From assembly GCF_000143415.4 (NCBI RefSeq), contig NW_003314343.1:434813-498812 (forward strand): DNA of 64,000 bases, in the 5' to 3' direction. The translations under genes were made by a program, and so were the position numbers. Every line of letters starts with the position of its first letter. Position 1 is the stretch's first letter. This document shows, piece after piece, positions 4,481 to 57,700 of this stretch. The notes under the pieces are model-generated. The model was not told where the DNA came from. It worked only from the letters and a program-made list of their open reading frames with translations, and searched no databases. The DNA comes from Selaginella moellendorffii. Lineage: Eukaryota > Plantae > Lycopodiophyta.

Positions 4481-4585
4481 TGTCTCTCTCCGGAATCGAA
4501 CCCTAATTCCCCGTTACCCGTCACCACCATGGTAGGCCTCTATCCTGGGTACTCTCCCCAAACCCTAAACCCTAAACTCTAAACC

Positions 4586-23890: not shown

Positions 23891-23959
23891 CTTGAAGAGT
23901 CAGTTTTTTCACCTTCATGTGTTGGCCCTTAATCAACCACGAATGGTCTTAAGCTCTTT

Positions 23960-24690: not shown

Positions 24691-25162
24691 TGTCTTTAAA
24701 TTTCATAAAACACAGAAAAGCTCTGGAGGAGGGACGAGACTCTTTTTGTCGTCAGCAATAGAAGTATGTGACCTAATGGTTTTACCATCATGTTTTACAT
24801 GCTCTCCACACAAGCATCCAACAAAGCGGATCATACGTCGATATCGAGATCAAAGCGATCCCTGATCACGCCACAAGATTTGGAAGGAATGACGGTGTCA
24901 ACGACATTATAGCTTTTCCAGGAAATACCAGTCATCCCACTGCAGCCATTAAAATCTCTTGCAGGAAGTTCATGACTTGCCATGCCTACGCCTGATTTTG
25001 CTGATTCTCGTTTGCAGGAAAGACTGGAAGAGAGAGCTCAAGCCGTACGGAATGGTTGGTTGATTAAGTTATTGTCTTGTTCCAGGACACTGAGTCGAGC
25101 ACCACCTCTGTCTTCTTACATGCAGGAAGCCTCTGCCGCAATGTACTGGTACATCGTCTGAA

Positions 25163-28755: not shown

Positions 28756-31700
28756 ATGGAGGGCGACGACAAGCCGCGCAAGGGAGAGGACAAGGATAAG
28801 GGTCTCAACACCAAGCGCAAGATGAAGACGCCCTCGCAACTCGAAATTCTCGAGAGGGTCTACGCCGGTGAGTGATTCCCCTCCCCTCGCTCTCGATCGA
28901 TTCGTGCTTCTTCCTGTGGTGGATTGATTGGTTTTCTCTCTTTTTTTTTTGTGTGTGTTCTTCGTGTTCTTCGTGCTGTTTAGAGGACAAGTACCCCTCC
29001 GAGGTGGTCCGCGCGGAGCTCTCCACGAAATTGAGCCTCACGGACAGGCAGCTCCAGATGTGGTTCTGCCACCGGCGGCTCAAGGACAGGAAGGGCGACG
29101 AGGGCGGCGCCCCTCCTGGAGCTCCCGCCGCGACCTCGTCAAAGAAGCAAAAGAGGAAGAAGGACAAAGAAGCTGCCACCGGTGCTGGCGGCGCGGCGCT
29201 CCTCTTGCTGCCTCCTCCTCCGCCTCTTCCTCCAAATCCAAGCCCAGCGTCCATGCTTGGAGCAGCGGTCGATCTCCCGGATGCCAAAGTAGCAGCAGTG
29301 GCAGCGCCGGCGGGTGGCGAGGAAGTCGCCAAGGCGACGACGATGACGACGAAAAAGGAAGGTGGCGGTAAGAAGCGGAGCGCGGCAGCCATGGCCGCCG
29401 AGGAGCTCAAGCGCGAGCGGGAGGTGATCACTCTGGTGGAGCAGCAGCTCGGGGAGCCGATCCGAGAGGACGGACCCGTGCTGGGAAGGGAGTTTGATCC
29501 GCTCCCTCCCGGACCCTTCGACACTCCTATAGGTACGTAAGCATGGCTGGATATGTCTGTGGTTTCGCGAAAACGCAGTGCTTGAGATGATTTGTGTGCT
29601 TGCATGGCAGACTCGTCGACGTTCTCGCTCAATGCGGCCGAGCTCAAGGTAAGATCGAGGAAGAGTTTGTTCTCTCGGTCGTGTTCTCAGGCGTGTTTTC
29701 GTGTTTTTCAGGCTCCAGGAGCTCCAGAGTTGGGTAGCAGCCGGCGGACATCCCCGCTGACGAGCAGCAGGACGATTCCCCGGGAGCACCAGTTCATTCC
29801 GGAGCATCCAACCGGAGCTCAGTTCCAGCCTTGCAAGCTGGAGAGGGACGGCAAAGGAAAGGCGCAGCAGAGTAGCAGCTCGCTCACGGATGCCAGAGTT
29901 CCGAACCTCTCCTTGAATTTCCTGCCGCATGGTGACGCTGATGCCGGCGTGGAGGAGCAGCTACTCAAGCCGTCTCACGTCGTGATTCCTGAAATGCCCG
30001 AGCCGCCGCAACCCGGAAGCAGCAAGAAACGCAAGGTAAAAATCTTAGCTTTGAGGCCAGGCTTACGTGTGCATAGGTCCAGAGTGACGACGCAAAGCTC
30101 GCCCGGGAGCTCGAGGCCCAAGAGAAGAAGCTCAAGAGAGAAGCTGAGAAGCAGGAAGCGGCACGCCGCAAGGTAAGCTAACTTACTTTGTTCTTTATAG
30201 TCTGTGACACGGTTGGCTGGCAGAGGGAAGAGCAGGAGAGAAAAGAGATCGAGAAGATCAACAGAGAGAGGCAGAGGGAGCTGGAGAAGATCAACCGCGA
30301 GAGGCAACGCGAGGAGGAGAGACATCAACGCGAGCAGAAGAAAGAACAGGATCGCTTGGAGAGACTGGCTCAAAAGGAGCAGCAACGGGTGAGGGTGTAT
30401 GGCTTTCAAAGTTTAGGACTAGCTGATCACGAGACATTGGTGGTGGTTTCAGCTGGAGAAGTTGCGCTTGAAGGAGGAGGTCCGGCGGCAAAAAGAGGCT
30501 GCGAAGCTCCAGGCCGCTTACGAGCGAGCGACCGCAAAGAAGCTTGCCAAGCTTTCCACGGGTCTGATGGACGACGAGCAGCTAGAACTCATGCAGATGG
30601 GCGCGTTTGTTCAAGGACTCGTCTCCGGTGATATGGAGGGTGGCTCGGCTTTCGACCCAAGCAAAGGTTTGGAGCTATCTTGCTGTTCTTGTGTTTAAAG
30701 TTTTCTATTTTCCGCGCAGTGGAGCTTAAGAAGTACCCGCCAGCTTCAGTGCGGATGAAGAAGGTTCTTGGAGTCTCGCCTTGGGATTCTGTGCAGAACG
30801 TTTCCAATCTTCTTATGGTGAGCGCTAGTTTTTTTCCAGCTTCCAGCCAACTTAACTCGTGTTGCCAAACAGGTCTGGGGATTCTTGACCACATTCTCGG
30901 ACGCCATTGGGCTGTGGCCATTTACAGTCGACGAACTCGTCCAGGGGCTTCATGACTTTGTAAGTTTTTGAGCGTTGCTCGTCCTTGGCCTGCTAGAGCT
31001 TCGTGCTTTTCCACGTTTGTGCAGGATTCCAGGCTCCTCAACGAAACTTACATTGCGCTGCTGAGGACTTTGATCAGAGATGTGGAAGATGCCGCGCAAG
31101 CAGCGGCGAGTGGAACCGCTGGAAGTCAGCACGCGATTGCTGTTGCGGCTGGTGGTCACCCGCAGATTGTTGAAGCCGTAAGCTAGCGGTTTTTTCCTTC
31201 TTCTGTCTTGCGTGTTTCTTGACCAGGCATGGTGTGCTCTCGCAGGCTTATACGTGGGGTTTTGACATTCAGGAATGGGGCCAGCATATGAGCCCTCTAA
31301 CGTGGCCAGAGATCCTTAGACAGTTCGCACTGGCAGCCGGTTATGGACCGAGGTGGAAGAAAAAAACGCAGTCACCCGATGCAAAGCCGGATTGTATCGA
31401 GGTATTTTTTATTCCTTCTCGTGTTTTTCTCTTACGTGCCGTGTCGTGCAGATACACGATGGCCACAACGCGAATGCGATCGCGACGCTGCGCTCCGGGG
31501 CTGCTGCAGTGAATGCTGTAGCTCTCATGCGTGGCAAGCATGGCACTCGACTAAAGGTGCGCAAGGGCCAGACTCCCAAGCTTACTCCGGGAACTGTCAA
31601 GTACGCTGCGTTCCACGTCCTGTCCATTCAAGGCAGCAAGGGCCTTACCATTCTGGAGCTAACAGACAGGATACAGGTAACTCGAATAGATGTAGACTTT

Positions 31701-34700
31701 GCTCGTTAAGCTGTCTAAGAGGGGGCTCGTGTTGCAGAAATCAGGCCTTCGGGACTTGTCATCGAGCAAGACACCGGAGGCGTCGATCTCAGCTGCCTTG
31801 TCCAGAGACACGTATCTGTTTGAGCGTGTTGCGCCGTCAACTTACTGCGTCCGTTCGCCGTTTCGAAGGGACCCGGACGATGCGGAAGATGTGCTGCAAG
31901 CTGCACTGGAGAGGACGTATTTGTATCAGACTCGGCAGCTGGACCCGGAGAAGGCAGACGAGGACGTGGAGGATGCCGAGGAGGAGTCCGAAGGCGAAGA
32001 GCACGAGGTTGAAGAAGCGGAGCATGAAAGCGAGCATATGGACGCGGAAGTGGAACGGGCCGAGCAGCATCAACAGCACGAGGATGCTCGCGAGCACGAC
32101 GAGAGCGGGCATGCCTCCGAGAGCTACGAGACTCCACGGAGGGGTAAAGTTATTCTGCGGTTAAAAACGGGGAAGCCTCAAGATAGTGCGGGTGAGGCAA
32201 CAGCAACAGCAGCAGCTGGAACAGCGGAGAGCTTTGAGACGGAAACACCAGCAGCAGTAGCAGCAGTAGCAGCACTAGCAGATTCCAAGGACGATGCAGT
32301 GAGGCACTTGCGGCCCCCGCCTGATGCTCTCAGGAAAGTTGACAATGACGACGAGATGGAAATTGACGAGAGCCAAGTGGGAGAGCCGTGGGTGCAGGGG
32401 CTCATGGAAGGAGAGTTTGCGGACTTGAGCATTGAGGAGCGGCTGAATGCTTTGGTGGCTCTCGTGGATGTGTTGAACGAAGGCAACACCATCAGATCAG
32501 TGCTTGAGGTACCTACATTTTGTTTCTTCTCTTTTTCTAGTGTGTCAACCTTTTCAACGTTTCTAGGAACGATATGAATCGGCCTCGGCTCTTAAGAGAC
32601 AACTGTGGGAGGAAGTTCAGGTGGACAAGCGTCGTATCAAGGAGGAGGCAAGCAAGTCGGCTGCCAAGTCCGAAGTGCCGGACGATGAGAGGCCCGCTGG
32701 TTCCGCTGCGGAGTGCGACAACGGGGCCTCGACCTCGGCAGCAGCGCATGCGGACAAGTCACGGGTTCAGATAAAAGCCGAGATCAGGTTGAGAGCCGAG
32801 AAGCTCTACGTGATCAGGTCCATGCCTCTTGGTTTAGATCGGAGACACAACAGGTACTGGCAGTTTGCAGCGTCAAACGGTGGTGAGGATCCTGGTCGTG
32901 CGAGAATCTATTTCGAGTGTAACGAAGATGGACACTGGGAAGTTATAGACACGGAAGAGGTACGAAGAAAGCCTGTCTCTCATCTTCGCTTCGCTCACGT
33001 TTCGTGATTGAATGCAGGCTTTAGATGCGCTCATGGCATGCCTAGACACACGCGGAGCAAGGGAGGCGAGCCTCTATAACATCTTAACTCACATAGGGGG
33101 CCCCGTCAGGAAAGCTATGAAGAGTCTTGCTCAGTCGAGAGCGTACGTGGAGTCATCCAAAGGCAAGGCGGAGGGAAGTCCGTCTAGTGGAGTTTTCGGA
33201 CCGTCGGACGCCTCTCCAGAGGTGCCAAGCGCCATTCCAGTTGAACTTGGAAGGTCCACACTTGAGATCCAGCACGCCATGGATCGCTTCAAGGACCTGG
33301 ACAGATGGCTCTGGAACCGGTGCTTGGCAAGAGGAGGGAAGAACCTCAAGGCTCTCAGCCTGGGAAACAAACGAGACGTGGAGATGTTGGCCACCTGCGA
33401 GCTGTGCCATGGCTTGTACTGGCCGGATGAAAACCACTGCCCGTATTGTCACGCCATGGTTGAGAGCTCCAAGTTCTCTAGTCACGTTCGCGAGTGCGAA
33501 AGCAAGCTCGAGGCAAAGCAGGGAATTGGATATCAACTTCTTCCATCTCGGCTACAGCTGCTCAAACAACTCTTGTTGTCTGTGGAGGTATGCGGAAGCT
33601 TTCTAGTTCTTTGCGCGTTTCTAATGCTTGTATCGCCCTTAGGTGGCTGTTCCAGCGGAAGCGTTCAAGGATTCATGGACGAGTGACTCCCGGAGGATCT
33701 GGTGTAGTAATGTCAAGGCTGCATCGTCGTCGAGCGAGCTTCTTGAGGTAAGCCCCGGAGTGCAGTGCTACTTGTGTTGCTGACTTTGTGGGTTGTGGCA
33801 GGCCCTCACCGAGCTGGAGAGCTGTGTGGACGAGAACTGGATCTCTTCGTCTTTTGAGACTGCAGAAAAGGCCTTGAGCACAACAGCACTGGGGAGCAAC
33901 TCAAGGAGGAAAAACTTGCCTTGGATCCCGCAGACAACAGCGGCAGTGGCGTTGCGGCTAAGTGCGTTTGATGCAGCCATAGCTTTCAGCACGGAGCAAA
34001 GACAGCAGCTGGAGGAGACTTACCAGAACAGCGACCATGGCTTCCACCGCGGGACTGTAAGTCCTTGGTATCTATTCTTTTTCTCTCAGCGTTTCATTCT
34101 TCTGTGCACGCAGGCGGACGAGGCGGCTCCCAACGCAAATGAGTTTGCGGCAAGTCCCCAAGGGACGAGCTCCCCGGACAGCGGCTCACCGCTGGAGGTA
34201 CAAAACGGGCATGTCCGAATGCGTTCTCCGCAGCACCACCGTTCGAGCTACCTGGAAGAACAGCACGAGGAAGAAGACAATCAACAGCAGGAAGTGGAGA
34301 AGCAGCAACAGATGGAGCAGCAGCAGCCGGGAAGAGGCCGTCTGCTGTTCCGTTTTCCTGGACGAAACGTCGAGCACCGTCAACAGGCGCAAGCGGGAGC
34401 ATCGGGTGGGGGTGGTGAGATGGATGAGAGCTCGGACGAGGACGACGAGGAAGGCCAGGGTTGGGAGAGGCAGGGATCGGACGAGCACTCTTATGAAGAT
34501 GATCAGCAACACCATCACCAGCAGCACCACCACCACCAGCAACAGGAGGAGGAGGAGGAGGATGAAGAGGAGGGGCAGCAAGCACCGCAACACTTCTACG
34601 ATCGTCAAGAACAGGAGGAAATCAACAGCATGATAATGGGCGAAGAGGAGAGCTATGATGAGGAGGAAGAGGAGGAAGGCGAGGAACTCCACCGCCAAGA

Positions 34701-34810
34701 ACAGCAGCAGCGGCAACAGCACCATGGACAGCACCATGGAGATTACGAAGAAGAGGAGGAAGTGGAGGAAGAGGAAGTGGAGTTAGAGGAGGAGCTGTCC
34801 GAGGAATCGA

Positions 34811-34815
<5 letters not shown>
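28756..34815 (+). CDS. RLT: Homeobox-DDT domain protein (RINGLET/RLT family, ISWI partner), multi-exon
   Basis: Homeodomain KRKMKTPSQLEILERVYA...QLQMWFCHRRLKDRK; DDT region LLMVWGFLTTF; HARE-HTH LTPGTVKYAAFHVLS; WHIM motifs LSIEERLNALVAL and PLGLDRRHNRYWQF; acidic tail. Confidence 0.92.
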
Positions 34816-39500: not shown

Positions 39501-39999
39501 CGCATAGTACCATCGAGAACATTGTGGCCCTACGTGAGCCTCATGGGTACTCTCCCCAAACCCGAAACCCTAAACCCCAAAACCTAAACCTTAAACCAAA
39601 ACCCTAAACCCTAAACCCTAAACCTGCATGGGAGATGGAAGCTTTTGAGCCCCTAGTGACACAGCACACCATCCTAGGTGCAAACCCACTCTTAGTGCTC
39701 TCGGTGAAGAAGAAGATGCCATTAACAACATTGCGGTGCCTAAAGAGCTCGCCTGGCCTATGAAAACCCTCACCTCAGAGTGAGGATTTCATATCCCACC
39801 GTCAAGTGCTCATTGAGCAGCAATTGGCAATGGTAAAACAGCGATTGCAAGAGTTGTTGAGGTAGTTGCCGCCACTGATGCCACCCCTACAACAGCAGCA
39901 GCAACAGTCGCCACCACCGCCTCCTCCGTCCCCGGCCCTACCGCTCTCAACAGTGGCGCCAACAGGTTGAAGCAGTTGCCGCCGCTGATGCCACCCCTG

Positions 40000-42900
40000 T
40001 GTAAGGAACCAACTCGCCGAGGGGTCGTAGGCTAAAGGAACCCCGAAAGCATGACCAAAATGACAAAGAGTTCATCGGATGGGACCAAGTCGAAGATCGA
40101 GTCCAAGACCGACTCTAGGACCGAGTTCGAGATAGAGTCCGGAATCGAGTCCGAGACCGACTCGGGGACCGAGTTCGAGTCCGAGTTTGAGACCGAGTTC
40201 GAGACGGAGTCCGAGATCCGAAATCGGGTCCGAGACCGAGTCCGAGGTCGAGTCTGAGGTCGGGTCCGAGATCAGGTCCGAGATCGAGTCCGAACCCGAA
40301 TCCGAAGTCGGATCCGAAATCGGGTCCGAGATCGAGCCAGAGACTAAGTCCAAATACTAATACGGGTCAAGGGGTGAAAGCCCAAAGCGTGCGTCTCCCA
40401 GGGGGGGGGGGGGGGCTGCAGGGGGTTCCAAAAGTATAGTAGGGATAGTGAGGTCCAGGAACCAGTTTTGAAGGGAACTCTCCAGTTGGGCTTCCAAACC
40501 GACTTGAGGTTGGGACTGGAACCGAGGGGCCTTGGGTGGGAGTGAGCATGGACTTGGCTGGTGCCGGAGGGGCCATTCAAGGAAGTGCTCAAGAGCAGCT
40601 CCCACTCCCGAAAGGGAAACCGATTGCGGTGCTCCCGGCTCATGTGGAGTGGTGCCCCACTTGAGTACCATGCGGCTCATTGGTCCTCGCCCTTCTTAGG
40701 GGCTTGGGCCTTCCTTCGGGATGGAAGTGGGGGGCGAGAGGTACCCATACCGGGCCGTTAGGCCATGGTGTTTCGCCCCGGCGTCCCGAAGCAAGTGTTG
40801 CACTCAAGACTTGGGATTTAGAGGGTCCCATGATCAAGTCTTGTGGTACCAAGGGATGTTAGGAACCTGGAAGCTTGGTGTGCTTGGCTGCTTGTGCTTG
40901 CGGGGAGTGTAGCCGAACCTTAAGTCCAGTCTAACCCGGGGAGGGGGATTGGGAGTGATTTGGGAATCCGTGGAAGGATGGCTAACACTCCGTTGCTCGT
41001 GCAGTGAGTAGCTGAAACCAAGTAGGAGCTGGTACCATAGGCGAGAACCTTGGCAAGGGAACTTAGCAAAAGCCAAGGCAGTGTTGGACGGATAGACGAG
41101 GTAAGCTGGCAAATTGGAAAGGAAAAATTTGTGGCTTACAATTTGGTATCGGAGCCTTTACCTCAGTTCTAGCGAAGGATAGAGGCGGATTGCTGGGAGA
41201 TGGCAAGGGCAGGGCGTAAGCGAACCCAGGCGGAGACGGAACCTCCGCCAGAGCTGGAGCCTCCGGTCGAACAAGAGGCTATGGATGAGGAATCCTTGCA
41301 TGAGGAGGACTCCAGTGAGGAAACCTCCAAACAGGAGTCCGGTGGCGAGGTTCGGTCGTCCAAGGCTCGATTGGACGTGCTAGAAGGACAGTTGGCACAG
41401 ACCAATGCCCTGCTGGAAACTCTCGTACGCAAGCTAAAGCGTGACGAGAGGCGGAAGAAAAAGAAAAAGACTGCAGATGCTGGCAGCGCAGAAGGTGCGG
41501 ATCTTTCGGCCGGGACTGAGGCAAAACCAGACAAGGTCGAACAGACCGAAGTGGAATCAGTCCCTCAGGCAGTTCCCAAGTACAAACCAAAGCCCCCACC
41601 GGTCTTCAAGGGAGTGAATGACTATAAGGTGGTGGAGGATTGGTTTTACGATATGGAGGACTACTTCCGAGCGCTGCGGTTACCAAGCTCGGAGAAGGTC
41701 CCATGTGCAAAACCATACTTGGCAGATAATGCCAAGTCTTGGTGGAGAACAACGGAGGCCAACGAAGGACCGGTGGTCACTTGGGACATGATGAAGGCGA
41801 GGATCCGCGCAACATATGTTCCTCCGAATGCCACTCTGCATCTGAGGGATGAACTGAGTAGGCTGAAACAGACAGGAACCATCCAGGAATATGTGAATGG
41901 GTTCATGGCAAAGAGGATACTTGTCACGGACATGGGGGATATGGATGCGTTCCATGCCTTCATATCAGGTTTGCAAACCTGGGCTCGCGGTGAGGTGATG
42001 AGGTGGAACCCGACCAACTACAAGGAAGCGTTGGATGCGGCCATCAAGGTGCATTTCAACGATAACCTGCGAAAGGGGAACACGACGGGGTCGGGATCCA
42101 CATTTAGCAAAGGGGCCAAACCAAGGGGAACGTATAGCAAGGGGAAATTCAAAAGGAGTTTCTCTAAGAATGAGTCCTCGGGGTTCCGGAAAGGCAAATC
42201 CGGTGGCCAGCGAGCGAGTACGTGGGGGAGTCAAGCGAAAAAGGACAAACCCACGGATAAGAAGGTCAAGTCGTATAGCAGCGTGGGAAACAACGTATGC
42301 TACAACTGCGGCGAAGCGGGACACTTCTCGAGGGAATGTCCCTACCCGAAGAAGGCCAGAGCCAATATGGCCATCAAGTCGGGTGAAGTCCAAACTGAGG
42401 TATGTGATCCAGTCCCTAACTCAAAGTTACTCATTACACGAGCAACTTTGGTAGAGAGTCGTTCGCGACATCTACTAGCCCTCCGAGGGAAGCTTGGAGG
42501 TAGCTTTGTTAAGATCCTTATTGACACGGGTGCTTCGGATAATTTTGTGGCTGCAGACATAGTCCGGCAAGCCAGACTAACGGTGCAGCGGCTAGGCGAA
42601 CCAAGGACTATAGAGTTTGTTCAGGGTAGCCAAAGCACCGATGAGGTACTTCGACAAGCGAGAGTCGAAGTGGGGACATGGAAAGTGGACATGGATTTCA
42701 CCGTCTTGGACATGGCGGGATTTGACGTGATCTTCAGAATGGATTGGTTTAATCGGTTCGTGGTAGCCCTGCATGGACAAGGTAGGAACCTTGTGGTATT
42801 GGCGAATGCCCAAGGAAGAAGATCTAGGGTGGAGGCCCAGGATCTAAAGGTAGGGCAAAGCAAGGCCAAAGAGTCATGCTTGAACCTGGTGTCCACGAGA

Positions 42901-45900
42901 GGACAACTCACTAAAGGAACTAAGGCAGCCTTTTTGTGCTTACTCTCGGTGAAGAGTGACAAAAAGACAAGAACGGAAGAAGTGCCTTTAGTGATCCAGC
43001 GAGTGTTGGACCAATTCCAGGATACCATGCCGGAGGAGCTACCGGCGGGGTTGCCCCCCGCACGACCGATAGAACATAAGATTGAGCTTGTCGAGGGCGC
43101 TGAGGCGGTGGTTCGTCCCCCCTATCATTCGAACGAAAAAGAACTCAAGGAGCTCAAGTGCCAACTAGAGGAGTTGGTGGGCAAAGGGTATGTTAGGTTG
43201 AGCAAGTCGCCGTATGGGGCGCCGGTATTATTTGTGAAAAAGAAAGATGGATCTATGCGCATGTGCATAGATTACCGGTTGCTCAACAAGTATACCAAGA
43301 AGAACAAGTACCCGTTGCCAAGGATTGAGGACCTGTTCGATAGGTTGGGAAAGGCAAAATACTTCTCGAGGATTGACCTAAGGTTAGGATACTACCAGAT
43401 CAGGGTAGCCGAGGAAGATGTCGAGAAGACAACCTGTCGAACGAGGTATGGGAGCTTTGAGTTTTTGGTGATGCCCTTTGGGCTGTGCAATGCGCCGGCA
43501 ATGTTTTCGGCGTTGATGAACCACATCTTTGTACCCTATCTGGATCACTTTGTGGTCGTCTATATTGACGACATCCTGATCTATAGCGAGACGCTAGAGG
43601 AGCATGCCGAACACTTGGCGAAGGTGTTTGAGAAACTAAGGGAACATAAACTGTATGCTAAAGAGAGCAAATGTGACTTTGCTCAGCAAGAGGTAAAGTT
43701 TCTCGGGCATGTGGTGGGCCAGGACAGGCTCAAGGTGGACCCGGAGAAGGTCCAAGCGATCCAGGAATGGGAGCGACCATCGAATGTACATGAGTTGAGG
43801 GCGTTCTTGGGGCTATGCAACTACTATCGAAAGTTTATCAGACACTATTCGAGAGTAGCCCTGCCCTTAACGGATCAAACGGGAAAAGGGAAGATGGTAT
43901 GGACAGCGGAATGCGAGGCGGCATTCGTCCACCTCAAAGGGAAGTTGAGGAAGGCTCCGGTGTTGGCATTACCGGACTTTGGTAAGGACTTTGAGGTAGA
44001 CACGGATGCTTCGGACTTTGCGTTAGGCGCAGTTTTGAAGCAAGACAACCATCCAGTAGCGTTCTTCTCGAAGAAGCTGGACAAGGCTCAACGGAAGTGG
44101 CCTGCCCACGAGAAGGAATTGTTTGCGGTGGTCAAGGCGCTCAAGGAGTGGCGACACTACCTTGGGAGACACTTCAAGGTTTACATGGACAATGTGGCAA
44201 CGAAACACTTCTTGTCACAACTCGACCTGAGAGGGAAACAAGGTCGGTGGGCCAATGCCTTGGCCGAGTTTGATTGCGAGATTCTGTATAAGCCTGGGAA
44301 GAGCAACATCGTGGCAGATGCGCTAAGTCGAAAAGCGAGCTTGAGGTTGGCGATCTCCAGCGCAACAGCAACCTTCTGGGACGATGTGCGGACAGCATAT
44401 GAGAACGATGGTCTATCACAAGAAGTGTTGTTGAGGAATCTGGAGGCACGGGAAGCTCACCAGAGAGGTGAGCCGCCAACGGAAGAGAAAACGGGCTATG
44501 CGGAACGCAATGGACTCATTTATTACAAGCAAACGAGGGTGTATGTTCCAGAAGGTGGACTAAGGAAGGTAGCCTTAGAAGAGTGTCATGACGGACCTCT
44601 TGCGGGACACGGCGGAGTGCCCAAGACGATGGGCTTACTCAAGAGGAAGTACCATTGGCCAGATATGGCTAAGGACGTCCAAGACTATGTAAAGACATGT
44701 CCAACATGTCAGCAGGTCAAAGCCGTGTCTAAGGCTAGTGGGGGCTTGTTGCAAAGCATCCCAATTCCAGATCGTCCGTGGAAATGTCTCACGATGGACT
44801 TCATCACGGGACTACCCCCAAGCGAGGGGTTCGATGCGATATTCGTGGTGGTGGATCGATTTTCGAAGATGGCACATTTCATACCCACCACAACGGAGGT
44901 GGATGCGGAAGGTGTGGCGAAACTGTTCTTCGAACAAGTGGTTCGAGTGCGGGGAAGGCCAAAGGAGATTATCTCAGATCGAGATAAGATCTTCACTAGT
45001 AGGTTCTGGAGGACCCTCCTAGAACAGTATCGCACCAAGTTGAAATTCAGCACAGCCTATCACCCACAGACAGGTATGGGGTATTAAGTCAAGTTTGGTG
45101 GTCCTAACACTTCTTGACAGACGGACAAACGGAAAGGGTGAATAGGCAGCTGGAGGATTATTTGCGATGCTATGTCTCGCGAGACCAGACCGATTGGGTA
45201 AGTCATTTGGGACTTGCGGAAATGTGTTATAACAACTCACCACATTCGAGTATCGGGGTGAGTCCATGGGAAGTCATCAATGGGCGAGCTATTGAAGGTC
45301 CTGTGGAACTCGGCGTGGCCGAGTATCATGGAGAGTTACCCGCAGGGGAGGCATTCACGGCGGAAAGACTCAACATTTGGAATCTAGTGAGGGATTCCTT
45401 GGAACGGGCTCAACAAAGGCAAACCAAGTACGCGAACCTAAAGCACCGGGATGTAGAGTTCCAAGCTGGGGAGAAGGTGTGGTTGAACACCAAGAACCTT
45501 AGGCTACCAAGTGGGATCAGCTGAAAGTTGACCCAAAGGTAAAAATGCATATATTCCTGTAAATGAATTGATCTTGAGTTCCTTAAGCAGGTTCGCGGGG
45601 CCTTACGAGATTGAGGCACGAATCGGTAAAGTGGCTTACCGACTCCGACTTCCTCGAGAGATGGGGAACCTGCACCCAGTGTTCCATGTGAACTTACTCA
45701 AGCCGTACTTTGAGGATCCGCTTCGCAAGGACCAAGTAAGACCTTTACCTGAGGTTATCCAAGGGGAAGAGGAATACGAAGTCGAGGCCATCCTCAATGC
45801 GCGCAAGAGCAAGCAACAAGGACGCGAGGTGAGAGAGTTCCATGTGAAGTGGAAAGGATTTCCACACTGCGAAGCAACATGGGAACCGGAGGAGAACCTA

Positions 45901-47526
45901 GCGAACGCGCGAGATCTAGTGGAGGAATTTCTGCAAGGCAGAACTCTATGTACTTATGCAAAGTTCAATTAAAAATATCAATTTGCAAAGTTGAGCAAGT
46001 GGCATATGTTGGGACCCGAAGGCGCGCCGAAGGTGAGCTAATTAGCATGGGTTAGCTAGGTCGACCAGGCGTAGGGAGCTACGCCCGACTCCCTGCGGGG
46101 ATGTCGAATCCGTAGACGTATTCTACGGAGGTTGGGTTCGAGTCCCAACCCCCTAGTAAAGCAAGGCTGGGTTCAAGTCCCGACCCTATACTAGGGCGTG
46201 GTGAGGTGAGGAGTATAGGGACACCTATATTCCGTTGTCATGGGCTCCTTGCCGGGGAGGCTAACTTAGGCACACCGCTAAGTGGGGGGATGCCCCCGGA
46301 GACATGGTCAACAAGTCGTAGGATAAAATGAGACGTTCGATGTGGGCATCGAACTTCTTCTATGGGTGGTGGAGTTGTAAGGAACCAACTCGCCGAGGGG
46401 TCGTAGGCTAAAGGAACCCCGAAAGCATGACCAAAATGACAAAGAGTTCATCGGATGGGACCAAGTTGAAGATCGAGTCCAAGACCGACTCTAGGACCGA
46501 GTTCGAGATAGAGTCCGGAATCGAGTCCGAGACCGACTCGGGGACCGAGTTCGAGTCCGAGTTCGAGACCGAGTTCGAGACGGAGTCCGAGATCCGAAAT
46601 CGGGTCCGAGACCGAGTCCGAGGTCGAGTCCGAGGTCGGGTCCGAGATCGGGTCCGAGATCGAGTCCGTGATCGAGTCCGAACCCGAATCCGAAGTCGGA
46701 TCCGAAATCGGGTCCGAGATCGAGCCAGAGACTAAGTCCAAATACTAATACGGGTCAAGGGGTGAAAGCCCAAAGCGTGCGTCTCCCAGGGGGGGGGGGG
46801 GTTGCAGGGGGTTCCAAAAGTATAGTAGGGATAGTGAGGTCCAGGAACCAGTTTTGAAGGGAACTCTCCAGTTGGGCTTCCAAACCGACTTGAGGTTGGG
46901 ACTGGAACCGAGGGGCCTTGGGTGGGAGTGAGCATGGACTTGGCTGGTGCCGGAGGGGCCATTCAAGGAAGTGCTCAAGAGCAGCTCCCACTCCCGAAAG
47001 GGAAACCGATTGCGGTGCTCCCGGCTCAAGTGGAGTGGTGCCCCACTTGAGTACCATGCGGCTCATTGGTCCTCGCCCTTCCTAGGGGCTTGGGCCTTCC
47101 TTCGGGATGGAAGTGGGGGGTGAGAGGTACCCATACCGGGCCGTTAGGCCACGGTGTTTCGCCCCGGCGTCCCGAAGCAAGTGTTGCACTCAAGACTTGG
47201 GATTTAGAGGGTCCCATGATCAAGTCTTGTGGTACCAAGGGATGTTAGGAACCTGGAAGCTTAGTGTGCTTGGCTGCTTGTGCTTGCGGGGAGTGTAGCC
47301 GAACCTTAAGTCCAGTCTAACCCGGGGAGGGGGATTGGGAGTGATTTGGGAATCCGTGGAAGGATGGCTAACACTCCGTTGCTCGTGCAGTGAGTAGCTG
47401 AAACCAAGTAGGAGCTGGTACCATAGGCGAGAACCTTGGCAAGGGAACTTAGCAAAAGCCAAGGTAGTGTTGGACGGATAGACGAGGTAAGCTGGCAAAT
47501 TGGAAAGGAAAAATTTGTGGCTTACA
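40000..47526 (+). mobile_element. Full-length Ty3/gypsy chromovirus LTR retrotransposon
   Basis: LTRs at 40000-41140 and 46376-47526 (TG...CA, nearly identical). PBS tggtatcggagcc at 41144-41156 (tRNA-iMet type). PPT at 46362-46375. 5-bp TSD ccctg/ccttg with one mismatch. Confidence 0.97.
41200..45972 (+). CDS. Gag-Pol polyprotein (Gag, CCHC knuckle, PR, RT, RNase H, IN, chromodomain); exons 41200-45073, 45121-45538, 45591-45972; premature TGA at 45522 in this copy
   Basis: Contains [37 protein letters not shown] and TMDFITGLP. Splicing restores [13 protein letters not shown] and KLTQRFAGPY. Chromodomain YEVEAIL...VKWKGF...TWEP. Confidence 0.92.
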
Positions 47527-50405
47527 CCTTGCAGCAGCAGCAGCCACCGCCGCTACTGCCTCCTCCGTCTCCGGCCCATCCGCTCTCAATGGTGCCGCCA
47601 CTGCTGCTGCTAGTCTTGGCGGAGGTTCGCTGGCTTGTTAAGGAGGCCATGGGCGAGGGTTTAGGGTTTCCACAATTGCCACCATTGCCACAACCACCAC
47701 AACCATCGCCACCGTCGTCACCACGACCACTATGACCATCGGCACCATTGCCACCATCCTTATCACCACCACCACTGCAAGGGATGGGGACTATCACCAA
47801 CATGATCAATGGATTGGTATCATCATTATTGTTCCTACTGTGTCCAACACAGTAGGATTGTATATCATACTCCGAAAGATGAAAGTATGGAATCAAGTGT
47901 GTGTGTATGTGTGTGTGTGTGTGTGAGATTGTCTAACTTAGAGTGCAGATTGCTACTACGACGACCACTGATCAGCAGCCCTAGCTTTGATCTAGCTGCA
48001 ATCTTCTGTTTTCTAAATCTTCATCTAATCACTGTGGCTCTTGTGGATGCTCAAAACCTTGGTTAGGCCAACGCTCCCAACAGCGTAGTTCAGGGTGGTC
48101 ATGCCACTTTGCACAAGGCTTTGGTGGATCGCTCAAGAGCTTCGACTTGAGTGCAAGTGTCGAGAACCGGTTTTTAGAATGTGAGATAGACTGTCAACCT
48201 CGCAGCGCTTGTAACTAGAGCAAGCCAAGATTGTGATGCGAGCAAGCTTCCACCATGCTCACCACACAATCCCTGAGATGGCGGAACACGGTTGTGAGTG
48301 CCTTCATGATGGTCACCTCCCTTGGCCTAAGCCTTGAACAAAAGAAGTGTTGCCCCTTGGTGCCATTTGGACTTTGGAACAACACTTCAGAACACTGTAG
48401 CCATACGTGAGCCTCATGGGTACTCTCCCCAAACCCTAAACCTTAAACCCTAAACCCCAAACCCTGAACCCTAAACCCTAATCCCTAAACTGTAAACCCT
48501 AAACCTGCATGGGAGATGGAAGCTTTTGAGCCCCCAGTGACACAGCACACCCTAAACCCTAAACCCTAAACCATTGACAACGTTGTAGTGCCTAGAGAGC
48601 TCGCTTGGCTTGTGAAAACCCTCACCAAGTCCTTGCAGCCGCTGATGATCGAATGTCTGCCAGGGCTTCAGTCGAGGCAAGTGATCATGTCCTAGATGCT
48701 GGAGAGCAGCTGGAACGCCATGATCTCCTGTGGCACCCAAGCATTCCACCAGCAGGAGCAGAGGTGAAAGCATTGCAAAGGGGAATCGAGCTAATTAATC
48801 GCTCTCAACAGTGCCACCATTGCTGCCGCTGGTCTTGGCGGAGGTTCGCTAGCTTGTTAAGGGGGCCATGGGTGAGAACATGTGTCCAATGGTTGAGGAG
48901 CCGTCCATGGCTGAGGAGAGCATGCTGGGTGAGGAGACACGATTGCCACCACTGCCACAACCACCACGACTGTCGCCACCGTCATCACCACGACCACCAT
49001 GACCACTGGCACCATTGCCACCATCCTAAACCCTAAACCCTAAACCTACATGAGAGAGCAAGCTTTAGTGACGTAGCATGCCATCCTAGGTGCAGACCCG
49101 CTCTTAGTGCTCTCGGTGAAGAAGAAGACACCATTGACAACGTTGCAGTGCGCAGAGAGCTCACCTGGCCTGTGAAAACCCTCACTAAGTCCTTGCAGCC
49201 GCAGATGATCCAATTGCTGCCGGGGCTCCAGTCGAGGCAAGTGATCGTGTCCTAGATGCTGGAGAGCAGCTGGAATGCCATGAACTCCTTGCAGCACCCG
49301 GGCGTTCCACCAGCTGGAGCAGAGGCAGAAGCATTGCAAAGGGGAATCGAGCTAAAGTCCTATTAATTAAGGCTTTTGGGATGGATCTAGCAAAGCGGTG
49401 AGAGATCATGAATCTTCTTATTCTCCTCCTGCTACTATTTCCTCCTCTATTTTAGAGTGAGGATTTCATATCCCACCGTTATGCGCTAATTGAGCAGCGA
49501 TTGACAATGGTAGAAGAGCAATTGCAAGAGCTATTGAAGAAGATGCCGCCACTGATGCCACCCTTACAATAGAAGCAGAAGTAGCAGCAGCTGCTGCCGC
49601 AGCCTCCTTCGTCCCTAGCCTTGCCGCTCTCAACGGTGCCGCCATTGCTGCCGCTGGTCTTGGAGGAGGTTCACCCGCTTGTTAAGGAGGCCATGGGCGA
49701 GAAGATGTGTCCAATGGTTGAGGAGCCATCCATGGCTGAGGAGAGCATGCTGGGTGAGGAGACACGATTGCCACCACTGCCACAACCACCACGACTATCG
49801 CCACCGTCATCACCACGACCACCATGACCATCGGCATCATTGCCACCATCCTCACCACCACCACCACCACAAGGGATGGGGACCATCACCAGCATGATTA
49901 GTGGATTGGTATCATCATTGTTGGTCCTACTATGTCCAGTATAGTAGGAATGTCTATCATACTCCGAAAGATGAAAGTATGTAATCAAGTGTGTGTGTGT
50001 GTTTGAGATTGTCTAACTTAGAGTGCAGGTTGCTCCGTCTACGACCACTGATCAGCAGCCCTAGCCTTGATCCAGCTACAATCTTCTGTTTTGTGAATCT
50101 TCATCTAATCACCGTGGCTCTTGTGCCTTTGTTGAGACTGTAAGCTCTTGTGGATGCTCAAAACATTGGCCAAGCCAACGCTCCCAATAGCGTAGTTCAA
50201 GGTGGTCATGCCACATTGCACAAGGCTCTGGTGGATCGCTCTAGAGCTTCAACCTAAGCACAAGCATCGAGAACAATCCCGAGAGTTAGATAGAATGTCA
50301 GCCTCGTAGCACTGGTAACTAGAGCAAGCCAAGATTGTGATACAAGCAAGCTTCCACCATGCTCACCACACAATCCCTGAGATGGCAAAACATGCTGTGA
50401 GCGCT

Positions 50406-51654
50406 TGTAAGCCACAAATTTTTCCTTTCCAATTTCCCAGCTTACCTTGTCTACCCGTGCAACACTGCCTTGGCTTTTGCTAAGTTCCCTCACCAAAGTT
50501 CCCGCCTATGGTACCAGCTCCTACTTGGTCCTACTTGGTTTCAACTACTCAATGCATGAGCAATAAAGTGTTAACCATCCATACATGGATACCCAATTCT
50601 CTCCCAATCCCCCTCCCCAGGTTAAACTAGACCTAAGGTTCGGCTACACTCCCCACAGGCACAAACAACCAAGCACACCAAGCCTCTAGGTTCCTAACAC
50701 CCCTTGGTACCACAAGACTTGATCATGGGACCCTTTAAATCCCAAGTCTTGGGTGCAACACTTGCTTCGGGATGCCGGGGCAGAACACCATGGCCTAACG
50801 GCCACCTCTACCCCCCCACTTCCATCCCAAAAGAAGGCCCAAGCCCCTAGGAAGGGCAAGGACCAATGAGTTGCATGGTACTCAAGTGGGGCACCACTCC
50901 ACATGAATCGAGAGCACCGCAGTCGGTTTCCCTTTCGGGAGTGGGAGCTGCTCTTGAGCACTTCCTGGGGTGGCCCCTCCGGCACCACCCACATCCATGC
51001 TCACTCCCACCCAAGGCCCCTCGGCCCCAGTCTCAACCTTAAGTTAGTTTGGAAGCACCACTGGAGAGTTCCTTCGAGACTGGTTCCTGGACCTCACTAT
51101 CCCTACTATACTTTTGGAACCCCCTGCAGCCCCCCCCCGCCCCCCCCGAGAGACGCACGCTTTGGGCTTTCACCCCTTGACCCGTATTAGTACTCGGACT
51201 CGGTCTCAGACTCGATCTCAGACTCGATCTCGGACCCGACTTCGGACTCGGTCTTGAACTTGATCTCGGACCTAATTTCGGACTCGGTCTCGGACTCGAT
51301 CTCGGACTCGATCTCGGACCCGACTTCAGACTCGGTCTCGCACTCGATCTCGAACCCGACTTCGGACTCAGTCTCGAACTCGATCTCGGACTCCATCTCG
51401 GACCCGATCTCTAACTCAACTTCGGACTCGGCCTCGGACCCAATTTGGATCTCGAACTCTGTCTCAAACTCGGTCTTGAACTCGGTCTCCGATTCGGCCT
51501 CGGACTCGATCCCGGACTTCATCTCGAACTCGGTCTCAAAGTCGGTCTTGGACTGCATCTTGGACTCGGTCCCATCTGATGAACTCTTTGTCATTTTGGT
51601 CATGCTTTCGGGGATCCTTTAGCCTATGAGACCTTGGCGAGTTGGTTCCTTACA
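50406..51654 (-). mobile_element. Solo LTR of the same chromovirus family
   Basis: tgtaagcc...ccttaca, flanked by a perfect 5-bp TSD gcgct (50401-50405 and 51655-51659). Confidence 0.95.
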
Positions 51655-54600
51655 GCGCTTTGATGATGGTCACCTCCCTTGGCCTTAGCCTTGAACAAAA
51701 GAAGTGCCACCATGTGGTGCCATTTGGACTTTAGAACAACACTTTGGAACACTGTGGCCCTATGTGAGCCTCATGGGTACTCTCCCCAACCCCTAAACCC
51801 TAAACCCCAAACCTAAACCCTAAAGTCCTATTAATTAGTGCTCTTGGGGTGGATTTAGCAAAGCGGTGAGAGATCATGGAACTTCTTATTCTCCTCCTGC
51901 TACAGTTTCCTCCTCTATTTCAGAGTGAGGATTTCATATCCCACCGTTAGGCACTCACTGAGCAGCGATTGGCAATGGTAGAATAGCGATTGTAAGAATT
52001 GTTGAAGCAGTTGCCGCCCCTGATGCCACCTATGCAGCAGCAGCAGCCACCGCCACCGCTGCCTCCTCCGTCGCCGGCCCTGCCGCACTCAACAGTGCTG
52101 CCACTATTACCGTTGGTCCTAGCAGAGGTTCGCCGGCTTGTTAAGGAGGCCATAGGTGAGAAGATGTGTCCAATGGTTGAGGAGCCGTTCATGGCTGAGG
52201 AGAGCATGCTGGGTGAACAGACACGATTGCCACCACTGCCACAACCACCACGACTGTCGCCACCATCGTCACCACGACCACTATGACCATCGGCACCATT
52301 GCCACCATCCTAAACCCTAAACCCTAAACCTACATAGGAGATGGCAAGCTTTTGAGCCCCCAGTGACATAGCATGCCATCCTAGGTGCAGACCCGCTCTT
52401 AGTGCTCTCGGTGAAGAAGAAGACGCCATTGACAATGTTGCGGTGCGCAGAGAGCTCGCCTTGCCTGTGAAAACCCTCACTAAGTCCTTGCAGCCGTAGA
52501 TGATCCAATTGCCGCTGGGGCTCCAGTTGATGCAAGTGATCGTGTCCTGGATGCTGGAGAGCAGCTGGAACGCCATGAACTCTTTGCGGCACCCAGGCGT
52601 TCCACTCACCTAAACCCTAAACCCTCAACAGTGCCGCCACTGCTGCCGCTGGTCTTGGTGGAGGTTTGCCGGCTTGTTAAGGAGGCCATGGGCGAGAAGA
52701 TGTGTCCAATGGTTGAGGAGCTGTCCATGGCTAAGGAGAGCATGTTGGGTGAGGAGACAGGATTGCCACCACTGCCACAACCACCACGACTGTTGCCATT
52801 GTCGTCACCACGACCACCATGACCATCGGCACCATTGCCACCATCCTCACCACCACCACCACCGCAAGGGATGGGGACCATCACCAACATGATCAATGGA
52901 TTGGTATCATCATTGTTGTTCCTACTGTGTCCAGCACAGTAGGAATGTCTATCATACTCCGAAAGATGAAATTATGTAATCAAGTGTGTGTGTATGTGTA
53001 TGTGTGTGTGTGTGTGTGTAAGATTGTCTAATTTAGAGTGCAAATTGTTGCTACTACGACCACTGATCAGCAACCCTAGCCTTGATCCAGCTGCAATCTT
53101 CTATTTTGTAAATCTTCATCTAATCACCATGGCTCTTGTGGATTCTCAAACTTTGGCCAAGCCAACGCTCCCAACAGCATAGTTCAGGGTGGCCATGCCA
53201 CATTGCACAAGGCTCTGGTGGATCACTCCAGAGCTTCAACCTAAGCGCAAGCATCGAGAACGATCCCGAGAGTGAGATGGAACGTCAGCCTCGTAGCGCT
53301 GGTAACTAGAGCAAGCCAAGATTGTGATGTGAGCAAGCTTCCACCATGCTCACCACATAATCCCTAAGATGGCAGAACACAGTTGTGAGTGCCTTGATAA
53401 TGGTCACCGCCCTTGGCCTCAATCTTGAACAAAAGAAGTGCTGCCTCTTGATGCCATTTGGACTTTGGAACAACACTTTGGAACATTGTGGCCCTATGCA
53501 AGCCTCATGGGTACTCTCCCCAAATCCTAAACCCCAAGTCCTAAACCCTAAACTTGCACGGGAGATGGAAGCTTTTGAGCCCCCAGTGACATAGCATGCC
53601 ATCCTAGGTGCTGACCCGTTCTTAGTGCTCTCGGTGAAGAAGAAGATGCTATTGACAACGTTGCGGTGCGTAGAGAGCTCGCCTGGCTTGTGAAAACCCT
53701 CATTAAGTCCTTGCAGCCACAGATGATCCAATTGCTGGGGCTCCAGTTGAGGCAAGTGATTGTGTCTAGGATGTTGGAGAGCAGCTGGAATGCCATGAAC
53801 TCCTTGCGGCACCCGGGCGTTCCACCAGCAGGAGCAGAAGCGAAAGCATTGCAAAGGGGAATCGAGCTAGTGTCTTATTAATTAGGGCTCTTGGGGTGGA
53901 TGTAGCAAAGTGGTGAGAGATCATGAATCTTTTTATTCTCCTCTTGCTATTGTTTCCTCCTTTATTCCGGAGGAAGGATTTCATATCCCACCGGTAGGTG
54001 CTCAATAAGCAGCAATTGCCAATGGTAGAACAGCGATTGCAAGAGCTGTTGAAGCAGTTGCCGCCGCTGATGCCACCCCTGCAAAAGCAGCAGCCGCCGC
54101 TGCCACCTCCTTTGTCCCTGGCCCTGTTGCTCTCAACAGTTCTGCCATTGCTGCCGCTGCTCCTCGCGGAGGTTCGCCGGCTTGTTAAGGAGGCGATGGG
54201 CGAGAAGATGTGTCCAATGGTTGAGGAGCCATCCATGGCTGAGGAGAGCATACTGGGTGAGGAGACACAATTGCCACCACTGCCACAACCACCACAACCT
54301 TCGCCACCATCGTCACCACGACCACTATGACTATCGCCACCATTGCCACTATCCTAAACCCTAAACCCTAAACCCTAAACCTGCACAGGAGATGGCAAGC
54401 TTTTGAGCCCCCAATGACATAGCATGCCATCCTAGGTGCAGACCCGCTCTTAGTGCTCTCGGTGAAGAAAAAGTTGCCATTGACAACGTTGCAGTGCGTA
54501 GAGAGCTCGCCTAGCCTGTGAAAACCCTCATTAAGTCCTTGCAGCCATAGATGATCCAATTGCTGGGGCTCCAGTTGAGGCAAGTGATCGTGTCCTGGAT

Positions 54601-54740
54601 GCTGAAGAGCAACTGGAACACCATGAACTCCTTGCAGCACCCGGGCGTCCCACCCGCAAAAGTAGAGGGGAAAGCATTGCAAAGGGGAATCGAGCTAAAG
54701 TCCTATTAATTAGGGATCTTGGGGAGGATCTAGAAAAGTA

Positions 54741-57700
54741 GTGAGAGATCATGAATCTTTTTATTCTCTTCCTGCTGTTGTTTCCTCCTCTATTTCAGAG
54801 TGAGGATTTCATATCCCACTGTCAGGCACTCACTAACCAGCGAATTGCAATGGTAGAATAGCGATTGCAAGAGCTGTTGAAGCAATTGCCATCGCTGATA
54901 CCACCCCTGCAGCAGCAGCAGCCACCGCCACTGCTGCCTCCTCCGTCCTCGGCCCTGCGGCACTCAACGGTGCCACCACTACTACCGTTGGTCCTGGCGG
55001 AGGGTCGCCGGCTTGTTAAGGAGGCCATAGGCTTTTGGGGTGGATCTAGCAAAGCGGTGAGAGATCATGAATCTTTTTATTCTCCTCCTGCTACTGTTTT
55101 CTCCTCTATTTCAGAGTGAGGATTTCATATCCCACCGTCAGGCACTCACTAAGCAGCAAATTGCAATGGTAGAACAGCGATTGCAAGAGCTGTTGAAGCA
55201 GTTGCAACCGCTGATACCACCCCTGCAGCAGCAGCAGCCATCGCCGCCGCTGCCTCCTCCGTCCCTGGCCCTGCGGCACTCAACGGTGCCGCCACTGCTA
55301 CCGTTGGTCCTGGTGGAGGGTCGCTGGCTTGTTAAGGAGGCCATGGGCTTTTGGGGTGGATCTAGCAAAGCGGTGAGAGATCATGAATCTTTTTATTCTC
55401 TTGCTGCTACTGTTTCCTCCTCTATTTCAAAGTGAGGATTTCATATCCCACCGTCAGGCACTCACTAAGCAGCAAATTGCAATGGTAGAACAGCGATTGC
55501 AAGAGTTGTTGAAGCAGTTGCCACCGCTGAAACCACCCCTGCAGCAGCAGCAGCCACCGCCGCCGCTGCCTCCTCCGTCCCTGGCCCTGCGGCACTCAAT
55601 GGTGCCGCCACAGCTACTGCTGGTCCTGGCAGAGGTTCGCCAGCTTGTTAAGGAGGCCATGGGCTGTTGGGATGGATCTAGCAAAGCGGTGAGAGATCAT
55701 GAATCTTTTTATTCTCTTGCTGCTGCTGTTTCCTCCTCTATTTCAGAGTGAAGATTTCATATCCCACTGTTAGGCGCTCACTAAGTAGCGATTGGCAATG
55801 GTAGAATAGCAATTGCAAGAGTTGTTGAAGCAGTTGCCGCCACTGATACCACCCCTGTAGCAGCAGCAGCCACCGCCGCCGTTGCCTCTGCCGTCCCTGG
55901 CCCTACGGCACTCAACGGTGCTGCCACTGCTACTGCAGGTCCTGGCGGAGGTTCGCCGGCTTGTTAAGGAGGCCATGGGCTGTTGGGGTGGATCTAGCAA
56001 AGCGGTGAGAGATCATGAATGTTTTTATTCTCCTACTGCTACTGTTTCCTCCTCTATTTCAGAGTGAAGATTTCATATCCCACTGTCAGGCGCTCACTAA
56101 GCAGCGTTTGGCAATGGTAGAACAGCGATTGCAAGAGTTGTTGAACCAGTTGCCGCCACTGATACCACCCCTGTAGCAGCAGCAGCCACCGCCGCCGCTG
56201 CTTCCTCCAAACCCGGCCTTGCGGCACTCAACGGTGCCGCCACCGCTACCGCTGGTCCTGGCGGAGGTTCGCCGGCTTGTTAAGGAGGCCATGGGCTGTT
56301 GGGGTGGATCTAGCAAAGCAGTGAGAGATCATGAATGTTTTTATTCTCCTCCTGCTACTGTTTCCTTCTCTATTTCAGAGTGAGGATTTCATATCCCACC
56401 ATCAGGCGCTCACTAAGCAACGATTGGCAATGGTAGAAAAGCGATTGCAAGAGTTGTTGAAGCAGTTGCCGCCATTGATACTACCCCTGCAGCAGCAGCA
56501 TCCACCACCGCCGCTGCTTTCTCCGTCCCGGCCCTGCGGCACTCAACGGTGCCGCCACTGCTACTGTTTCCTCCTCTATTTCAGAGTGAGGATTTCATAT
56601 CCCACCGTCAGGCGCTCACTAAGCAGCGATTGGCAATGGTAGAATAGCAATTGCAAGAGTTGTTGAAGCAGTTGCCGCCACTGATACCACCCCTGTAGCA
56701 GCAGCAGCCACCGCTGCCATTGCCTCCGCCGTCCCCGGCCCTGCGGCACTCAACGGTGCTGCCACTGCTACCGCTGGTCCTGGCGGAGGTTCGCCGGTTT
56801 GTTAAGGAGGCCATGGGCTGTTGGGGTGGATCTAACAAAGCGGTGAGAGATCATGAATCTTTTTATTCTCCTCCTGCTACTGTTTCCTCCTCTATTTCAG
56901 AGTGAGGATGTCATATCCCACCCTCAGGCGCTCACTAAGCAGCGATTGGCAATGGTAGAACAACGATTGCAAGAGCTGTTGAAGTAGTTGCCGCCGCTGA
57001 TACCACCCCTGCAGCAGCAGCAGCCACCGCCGCCGCTGCTTCCTCCATTCCCGGCCCTGCGGCACTCAACGGTACCGCCACCGCTACCGCTGGTCCTGGC
57101 GGAGGTTCGCCGGCTTGTTAAGGAGGCCATGGGCTGTTGGGGTGGATCTAACAAAGCGGTGAGAGATCATGAATCTTTTTATTCTCCTCCTGCTACTGTT
57201 TCCTCCTCTATTTTAGAGTGAGGATTTCATATCCCACCATCAGGCGCTCACTAAGCAACGATTGGCAATGGTAGAACAGTGATTGCAAGAGTTGTTGAAG
57301 CAGTTGCCGCCATTGATACCACCCTTGCAGCAGCAGCATCCACCGCCGCCGCTGCTTTCTCCGTCCCGGCCCTGCGGCACTCAACGGTGCCGCCACTGCT
57401 ACTGTTTCCTCCTCTATTTCAGAGTGAGGATTTCATATCCCACCGTCAGGCGCTCACTAAGCAGCGATTGGCAATGGTAGAACAATGATTGCAAGAGCTG
57501 TTGAAGTAGTTGCCACCACTGATACCACCCCTGCAACAAGGTCGGTGGGCCAATGCCTTGGCCGAGTTTGATTGCGAGATTCTGTACAAGCCTGGGAAGA
57601 GCAACATCGTGGCAGATGTGCTAAGTCGAAAAGCGAGCTTGAGGTTGGCGATATCCAGCGCAACAGCAACCTTCTGGGACGATGTGCGGACAGCATATGA

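Follow-up and report, generated by a model that had tools for sequence, protein, structure and literature searches.

Spliced introns inside the integrase gene of a Selaginella moellendorffii chromovirus, and a probable leader intron across its primer-binding site

Intron loss during retrotransposition is the basis of standard reporter assays. Plant LTR elements are described as generally devoid of introns in the part of a 2025 review available to us, where only Ogre and EVD are named (PMC12786077). The locus analysed here, a stretch of 64,000 nucleotides of Selaginella moellendorffii DNA (contig NW_003314343.1, hereafter the window), raises the question of how an LTR retrotransposon can carry introns within its integrase gene, need their removal to make the enzyme, and still transmit them in its DNA. 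An earlier note, made from the sequence alone, had proposed that two such introns split the integrase gene and that their splicing is a switch for integration and chromatin targeting; it suggested searching for junction reads and aligning the gene with related chromoviruses.

The element, referred to below as copy 1, has the LTRs, short target-site duplication, primer-binding site, polypurine tract and domain order of a Ty3/gypsy LTR retrotransposon, and the chromodomain at the C-terminus of its integrase makes it a chromovirus. Its main features, the primer-binding site and polypurine tract being recognised by sequence, are as follows.
40000-47526, + strand: full-length Ty3 chromovirus LTR retrotransposon (copy 1)
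39995-39999, + strand: left target-site duplication CCCTG, within one unit of a 316-bp satellite
40000-41140, + strand: 5' LTR, TG...CA, its first part holding a 12-bp tandem array
41144-41156, + strand: primer-binding site TGGTATCGGAGCC
41200-45087, + strand: unspliced ORF of 1295 aa from ATG 41200, ending within intron A, before the catalytic Glu
46364-46374, + strand: imperfect polypurine tract ahead of the 3' LTR
46376-47526, + strand: 3' LTR
47527-47531: right target-site duplication CCTTG, 4 of 5 letters the same as the left CCCTG

The primer-binding site is presumably of the initiator-Met tRNA type. The LTR pair is 97.8% alike, with 12 mismatches and 2 indels over about 1140 nt, and because the LTRs are near-identical and flanked by CCCTG/CCTTG, copy 1 is a young insertion. 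The 12-bp tandem array (40094-40336) has unequal unit numbers in the two LTRs, and a G run (40402-40415) is of variable length. According to Pfam, the 1295-aa ORF contains Gag, a zinc knuckle, protease, RT, RNase H and integrase as far as YHPQT, in the order Gag-PR-RT-RH-IN with a match to Ty3 Gag-Pol, and the SH3-like module and chromodomain sit in a later frame. No Rfam family was found in 36000-64000.

The end of the integrase gene is divided as follows.
45074-45120, + strand: integrase intron A, 47 nt, GTATGG..GACAG, phase 1, in the core motif directly before the catalytic Glu
45121-45538, + strand: middle integrase exon, bearing the catalytic Glu
45539-45590, + strand: integrase intron B, 52 nt, GTAAAA..AAGCAG, phase 2, where the SH3-like (GPY/F) module begins
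45591-45972, + strand: last exon, with the SH3_Tf2-1 module (PF24626, E 2.5e-15) and the chromodomain (PF00385, E 1.2e-16), both from Pfam

Both introns lie exactly where the earlier note had placed them, with the lengths and GT..AG ends it gave, and the long ORF does halt after YHPQT, so that the catalytic Glu is readable only once intron A is out. The spliced protein, with an X put at each exon break, was aligned to homologs (n = 120). Site A is covered by 117 of these, all of them ungapped (117/117), with D at the break in 113; site B is covered by 103, of which 82 are ungapped, with R at the break in 67. In a second homolog set (n = 150), 143 of the 145 proteins covering A and 111 of the 129 covering B are ungapped. 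Since the alignments run through both breaks, the inserts are exact, which is what the comparison with related chromoviruses was expected to reveal. Moreover, in the alignment with Ty3 Gag-Pol (PDB 7q5b) exon 1 reaches residue 1267 and exon 2 resumes with residue 1269, and the second catalytic D and the catalytic E are 35 residues apart. Removal of intron A thus restores the core motif with its catalytic Glu, as had been claimed. For intron B the claim holds in part: its removal restores a protein of homolog length, but the link to the chromodomain is blocked in copy 1 by an in-frame TGA (45522-45524) in the middle exon, which copy 2 (described below) lacks. Copy 1 is therefore unable to join the chromodomain, spliced or not, and because of this stop codon it probably no longer yields a full-length integrase. 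The chromodomain in the last exon has the aromatic residues Y, W and F, as judged by eye.

Other splice sites would also restore the frame (11 at A and 16 at B), but the RNA, described below, and the homologs point to those of the earlier note. The junctions of intron A share a 5-nt repeat, GACAG. RNA folding gave nothing significant in intron A (z -0.82) or intron B (z 0.38), and a search of the window for further copies of A and B, as an introner-like sign, returned only those of copy 2. The earlier note had also placed the introns in the size class of the host, and two neighbouring genes agree with it.
25094-27117: GT47 glycosyltransferase gene with a 56-nt intron (26173-26228), best match Selaginella moellendorffii, 56%
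28756-34815: homeobox-DDT (WHIM1, HARE-HTH) gene with many short introns

The GT47 intron was placed by homology, and the 17 introns of the homeobox-DDT gene have a median of 63 nt in a crude, RNA-unchecked model in which several are visibly mis-merged.

Evidence of splicing comes from public sequencing runs, 8 of 23 listed runs having been compared with the element. The label "RNA" is a software guess for runs X1, X3, X4 and X8 and a recorded fact for X16; the kind of X10 is unstated in its record, and we judge it by inference to be low-pass genomic DNA. Raw reads of X16, X17 and X18 were sampled at about 12% each, which placed 11 reads for X16 and 0 for X17 and X18. In X1 (study P1), one 2500-nt contig lacks precisely the 47 and the 52 nt, with GT..AG at the ends of both, and in X16 (study P6) one of the 11 raw reads skips the 47 nt of intron A. 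The junctions 45073/45121 and 45538/45591 predicted by the earlier note were thus found in X1, the first also in X16; spliced intron B was seen in one run (X1). The X1 contigs differ from copy 1 by about 3.7% and therefore derive from another family member. One X3 contig crosses intron A without a gap and one X4 contig passes through intron B into the last exon, so that unspliced forms, or DNA, are present too. Another X4 contig, of depth 72, joins 312 nt of the element (45252-45563, middle exon and start of intron B) to about 1450 nt of unrelated sequence, and is possibly an element fragment within an expressed host transcript. Two other joints were rejected as introns: one in X8 from 46375 to 40001, which is the boundary from polypurine tract to 3' LTR, and a 140-nt skip in X10 (depth 2.08), which lacks GT..AG ends.

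The same runs contain a third intron.
42400-42556, + strand: gag/protease intron, 157 nt, GTATGT...CTGCAG, carrying the protease DTG motif

Its 157-nt skip occurs in X1 (study P1) and X3 (study P2), that is in two studies; X1 has the spliced form only, X3 both forms, and an X4 contig retains the intron. Removal leaves a Gag of 401 aa with a stop one codon past the joint, and the X1 RNA spliced here continues downstream, in a contig reaching 43319. No significant RNA fold was found at the donor (z -0.93). Introns A and B and the gag intron are thus spliceosomal introns of U2 type, with GT..AG ends and an exact removal in RNA-labelled sequence that is thinly replicated.

Facultative gag splicing has precedents, here taken from the accessible portions of the papers cited. 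In BARE1, 104 nt are spliced out to make Gag and only unspliced RNA is replicated (PMC3735527), and in EVD and other Ty1/copia elements splicing occurs around the protease, no such conserved pattern being reported for Arabidopsis Ty3/gypsy elements (Oberlin et al., PMC5580714). Like those elements, the present one has a facultative gag/protease intron that leads to a Gag-only frame, and as in BARE1 the spliced RNA extends past the joint, with replication of unspliced RNA described in BARE1 and proposed here. BARE1, EVD and copia differ in belonging to Ty1/copia and in making Pol without splicing, and no primer-site intron is described for them in those portions (PMC3735527, PMC5580714).

A fourth intron is probable, in the leader.
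41101-41166, + strand: probable leader intron, 66 nt, GTAAGC...CCTCAG, enclosing the primer-binding site and the final 40 nt of the LTR
41101-41139, + strand: predicted hairpin pairing the leader donor with the 3' end of the LTR
50406-51654, - strand: solo LTR, 83-86% alike, belonging to a related subfamily and flanked on both sides by the perfect 5-bp duplication AGCGC

One X1 contig begins at 41165 with a loose end that agrees with 41069-41098 in 28 of its 30 letters, and there the genome continues with AG/GTAAGC; because this match lies just upstream of the donor, we place a 66-nt intron at 41101-41166. The spliced leader was seen in X1 only, in the loose end of that one contig, with no unspliced leader contig among those listed for this run. 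The leader region is only unspliced in X3, X4 and X8, and no spliced leader was found in the four runs X3, X4, X8 and X10. The donor AG/GTAAGC is also kept in the solo LTR. Position 41160 is T in all four of these runs, which lengthens the pyrimidine tract at the acceptor, and there is no ATG upstream of 41200 in 40990-41199. The hairpin has a z of -3.52 (1 of 200 shuffles) in a window that was picked post hoc, and the same region of the solo LTR has a z of -1.70. An intron spanning the LTR end and the primer-binding site thus probably exists. The earlier note, right about A and B, had overlooked the probable leader intron, the gag/protease intron and the TGA in the middle exon of copy 1.

Could the skipped forms be intron-less genomic copies or their transcripts, with the window copies a minority lineage, and no splicing at all? 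The 3.7% distance of the X1 contigs from the window copy speaks for this, as does the tendency of contigs to drop rare variants, so that X10 bounds rather than excludes intron-less copies. Against it, X1 has four GT..AG skips, including loss of the primer-binding site and of the protease site, which cannot describe a replicating element, and X3 has the gag intron in both forms. Moreover, none of the four skips is seen in X10, whose 383 contigs cover 30 of 30 bins and include one of 952 nt, at depth 23.4, with A and B intact. The DNA copies seen keep A and B, in the window as in this probable DNA run, and we regard the intron-less explanation as very improbable.

The reading frames predict three products. 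Wholly unspliced RNA would give the 1295-aa polyprotein, with an integrase dead for want of the catalytic Glu; RNA that keeps the gag intron and has lost A and B would encode a complete Gag-Pol, about 1557 aa long, that includes the catalytic Glu and the chromodomain; and fully spliced RNA would give the 401-aa Gag alone. Of these, only the Gag from fully spliced RNA fits X1, and no single molecule among the contigs examined was seen to retain the gag intron while lacking A and B. The wholly unspliced RNA would serve as genome. Transcripts that enter splicing would lose the leader intron, and with it the primer-binding site and LTR end, and hence the priming of reverse transcription. Such transcripts could not prime, no intron-less cDNA would form, and the introns downstream would no longer be purged. 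Which of the two fates a transcript meets may depend on the hairpin predicted over the leader donor.

We consider it reasonably probable that this element has three demonstrated spliceosomal introns and a likely fourth, that it replicates only from wholly unspliced RNA, and that its spliced RNAs serve to make proteins. A more specific reading is held tentatively, at slightly less than even confidence: a primer-binding site inside an intron would let splicing sort transcripts into mRNA and genome, which would lift the usual purge of introns and allow host-sized introns to settle even in the active-site motif of integrase, with Gag, dead integrase and active chromodomain integrase set by a splicing code of four introns. 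Of the earlier interpretation, splicing at the predicted sites, the retention of introns in DNA copies and the need to remove A for the catalytic Glu have held up. The chromatin-targeting switch found no backing, as no RNA with A spliced and B retained was seen in contigs, which cannot phase the two.

The introns could also be real and needed, and yet be retained for another reason: uncapped, unspliced RNA might be made as a pool of its own at a second start site, as in BARE, or export or packaging might be selective, the leader intron then being incidental or minor. A precedent for distinct RNA pools, one translated and the other replicated, is BARE1, in which, according to the pages available, replication is limited to transcripts that are unspliced and uncapped and arise from a TATA box of their own (PMC3735527), and leader splicing in one run, with unspliced leaders in three others, would agree with such a pool. 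It would leave unexplained that the leader intron takes out precisely the primer-binding site and LTR end, that a diverged LTR has preserved the same donor, and that X1 lists no unspliced leader contig. This explanation seems to us unlikely, though worth keeping in mind beside the sorting of transcripts by leader splicing that we prefer.

Whether introns A and B have been inherited through retrotransposition can be examined with a second copy.
57535-60826, + strand: second copy, 5'-truncated, 95.7% identical to copy 1, with both integrase introns
58372-58418 (A) and 58837-58888 (B), + strand: integrase introns of copy 2, with the later exons open

As the earlier note had stated, both introns are kept, intron A being identical to that of copy 1 at 47 of 47 positions and intron B at 51 of 52. 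Copies 1 and 2 end at different phases of the 316-bp satellite (137 and 172), and because its 3' end lies at another phase copy 2 is likely a separate insertion. The truncated 5' end of copy 2 (57435-57540) meets the satellite at phase 137, matching the insertion site of copy 1, and to judge from the sequence this junction apparently formed through short microhomology; the shared phase may reflect chance or recombination. Before intron A the two copies differ by 14 synonymous and 8 non-synonymous changes (p 0.0006 vs neutral). Because of the different phases and this 14:8 ratio, the introns were likely passed on through retrotransposition, and both copies would likely descend via active lineages that already carried A and B. 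In the two later exons, 5 synonymous and 14 non-synonymous differences were counted (p 0.65 vs neutral; p 0.028 by Fisher's test versus the exon preceding A), and no purifying selection is shown there between copies 1 and 2. For most of these later-exon differences one of the two copies has the residue of the relatives, which would fit decay after insertion. Measured against basal relatives, the conservation ratio is lowest in the middle exon (0.71), intermediate in exon 1 (0.86) and highest in the last exon (1.07).

These counts bear on a further explanation, in which A and B are insertions that disabled the integrase of the family and are spliced by the host only by chance, and integration is done in trans by another family. 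The missing purifying selection between copies in the later exons would suit it, as would the stop codon of copy 1, a full integrase isoform that is not phased, and the GACAG repeat at intron A, which resembles an insertion footprint. On the other hand, both cuts restore a homolog-length protein exactly, and two random inserts with GT..AG ends are improbable (about 5e-4 by a rough estimate that allows for sliding). Furthermore, the later exons of copy 2 are open, the chromodomain exon is conserved as in basal relatives, and no intron-less sibling is visible in X10. We judge integration in trans to be quite unlikely, and retain introns that the element itself needs removed as the preferred reading.

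Both element copies lie in the 316-bp tandem satellite, whose units are 88-93% alike at 54719-57402 and 60829-64000 and degenerate at 268-5278 and 48000-54400; the satellite is possibly centromeric, which would suit an integrase bearing a chromodomain. About 11 degenerate CCCTAAA units, of the plant telomere type, occur within the satellite region at 48427-48505, and an AT-rich stretch (18000-24000, 27-33% GC) separates gene-rich regions. Two further features were recorded.
6123-6757, - strand: partial LTR, 89% alike across 661 nt, from a related subfamily
10568-11551: DUF7358 ORF

Relatives were placed with FastTree on RT-RH-INT, using 84 sequences, each with over 560 of the 631 residues and all without a clade label. 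The element is sister to single-ORF chromoviruses of seed plants, of about 1510-1560 aa, with a support of 0.998. We take this sister group to be probably Galadriel. The element shares with these proteins 52-56% identity, the same domain order and the length predicted for its own Gag-Pol, and differs in that they are continuous across both intron sites, being database proteins and partly gene models. An aromatic-cage chromodomain is attributed to non-seed-plant Galadriel, and also to Tcn1 and Chlamyvir, in the available part of PMC6317226, and the element has this trait of non-seed-plant Galadriel (Y, W, F). According to the same part, members of the Tcn1 clade mostly have no tRNA primer-binding site and are self-priming (PMC6317226). 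Close relatives were sought with the full-ORF integrase (best about 53%), with Gag (5 matches, 28-31%) and with the middle exon against 50%-representatives (best 49%), and none was found. Tcn1 membership is unlikely in view of the site at 41144-41156, presumably of the tRNA-Met type. Among viral contigs there was one uninterrupted element (40-49%) and none with RT. The donor-signature DNA pattern gave 1 metagenome and 8 viral matches, none of which matched integrase, and the metagenome match looks like an unrelated bacterial-type ORF.

Among known systems, as far as the consulted sections of the sources go, Ogre (Ty3, Tat lineage) has an intron between two ORFs that is spliced in a subset of transcripts (PMC6317226). 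Both Ogre and the present element are Ty3 elements with an intron retained in the DNA, and both need to splice some transcripts to obtain the whole polyprotein; the present element differs in being a chromovirus with two introns inside integrase, one of them in the catalytic core, in addition to the gag intron and the probable leader intron. In Penelope-like elements spliceosomal introns survive retrotransposition, the cause being stated as unknown in the section seen, and they include a 5'-UTR intron at the terminal-repeat boundary; these elements form another order, one that lacks both tRNA priming and a DDE integrase (PMC8557442). No integrase introns appear in the portions available of PMC2864245, PMC7175516 and PMC7197481, and a literature search, mostly open-access and at the level of listings, returned no account of an LTR element whose integrase gene is interrupted by introns or whose primer-binding site is spanned by one. 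The word Selaginella is absent from the five text supplementary files of PMC6317226, the element tables lying outside that search.

Splicing to make Gag, in BARE1 and EVD, and an intron that must be removed, in Ogre, were thus already known, and introns within the integrase core are unreported in the literature found. An element that needs splicing in its integrase core and yet transmits its introns makes the separation of genome RNA from mRNA testable, and an intronic primer site would be a simple answer, checkable on single long reads. Because intron-bearing elements look decayed to ORF-based annotation, active families in plants with short introns may be under-counted.
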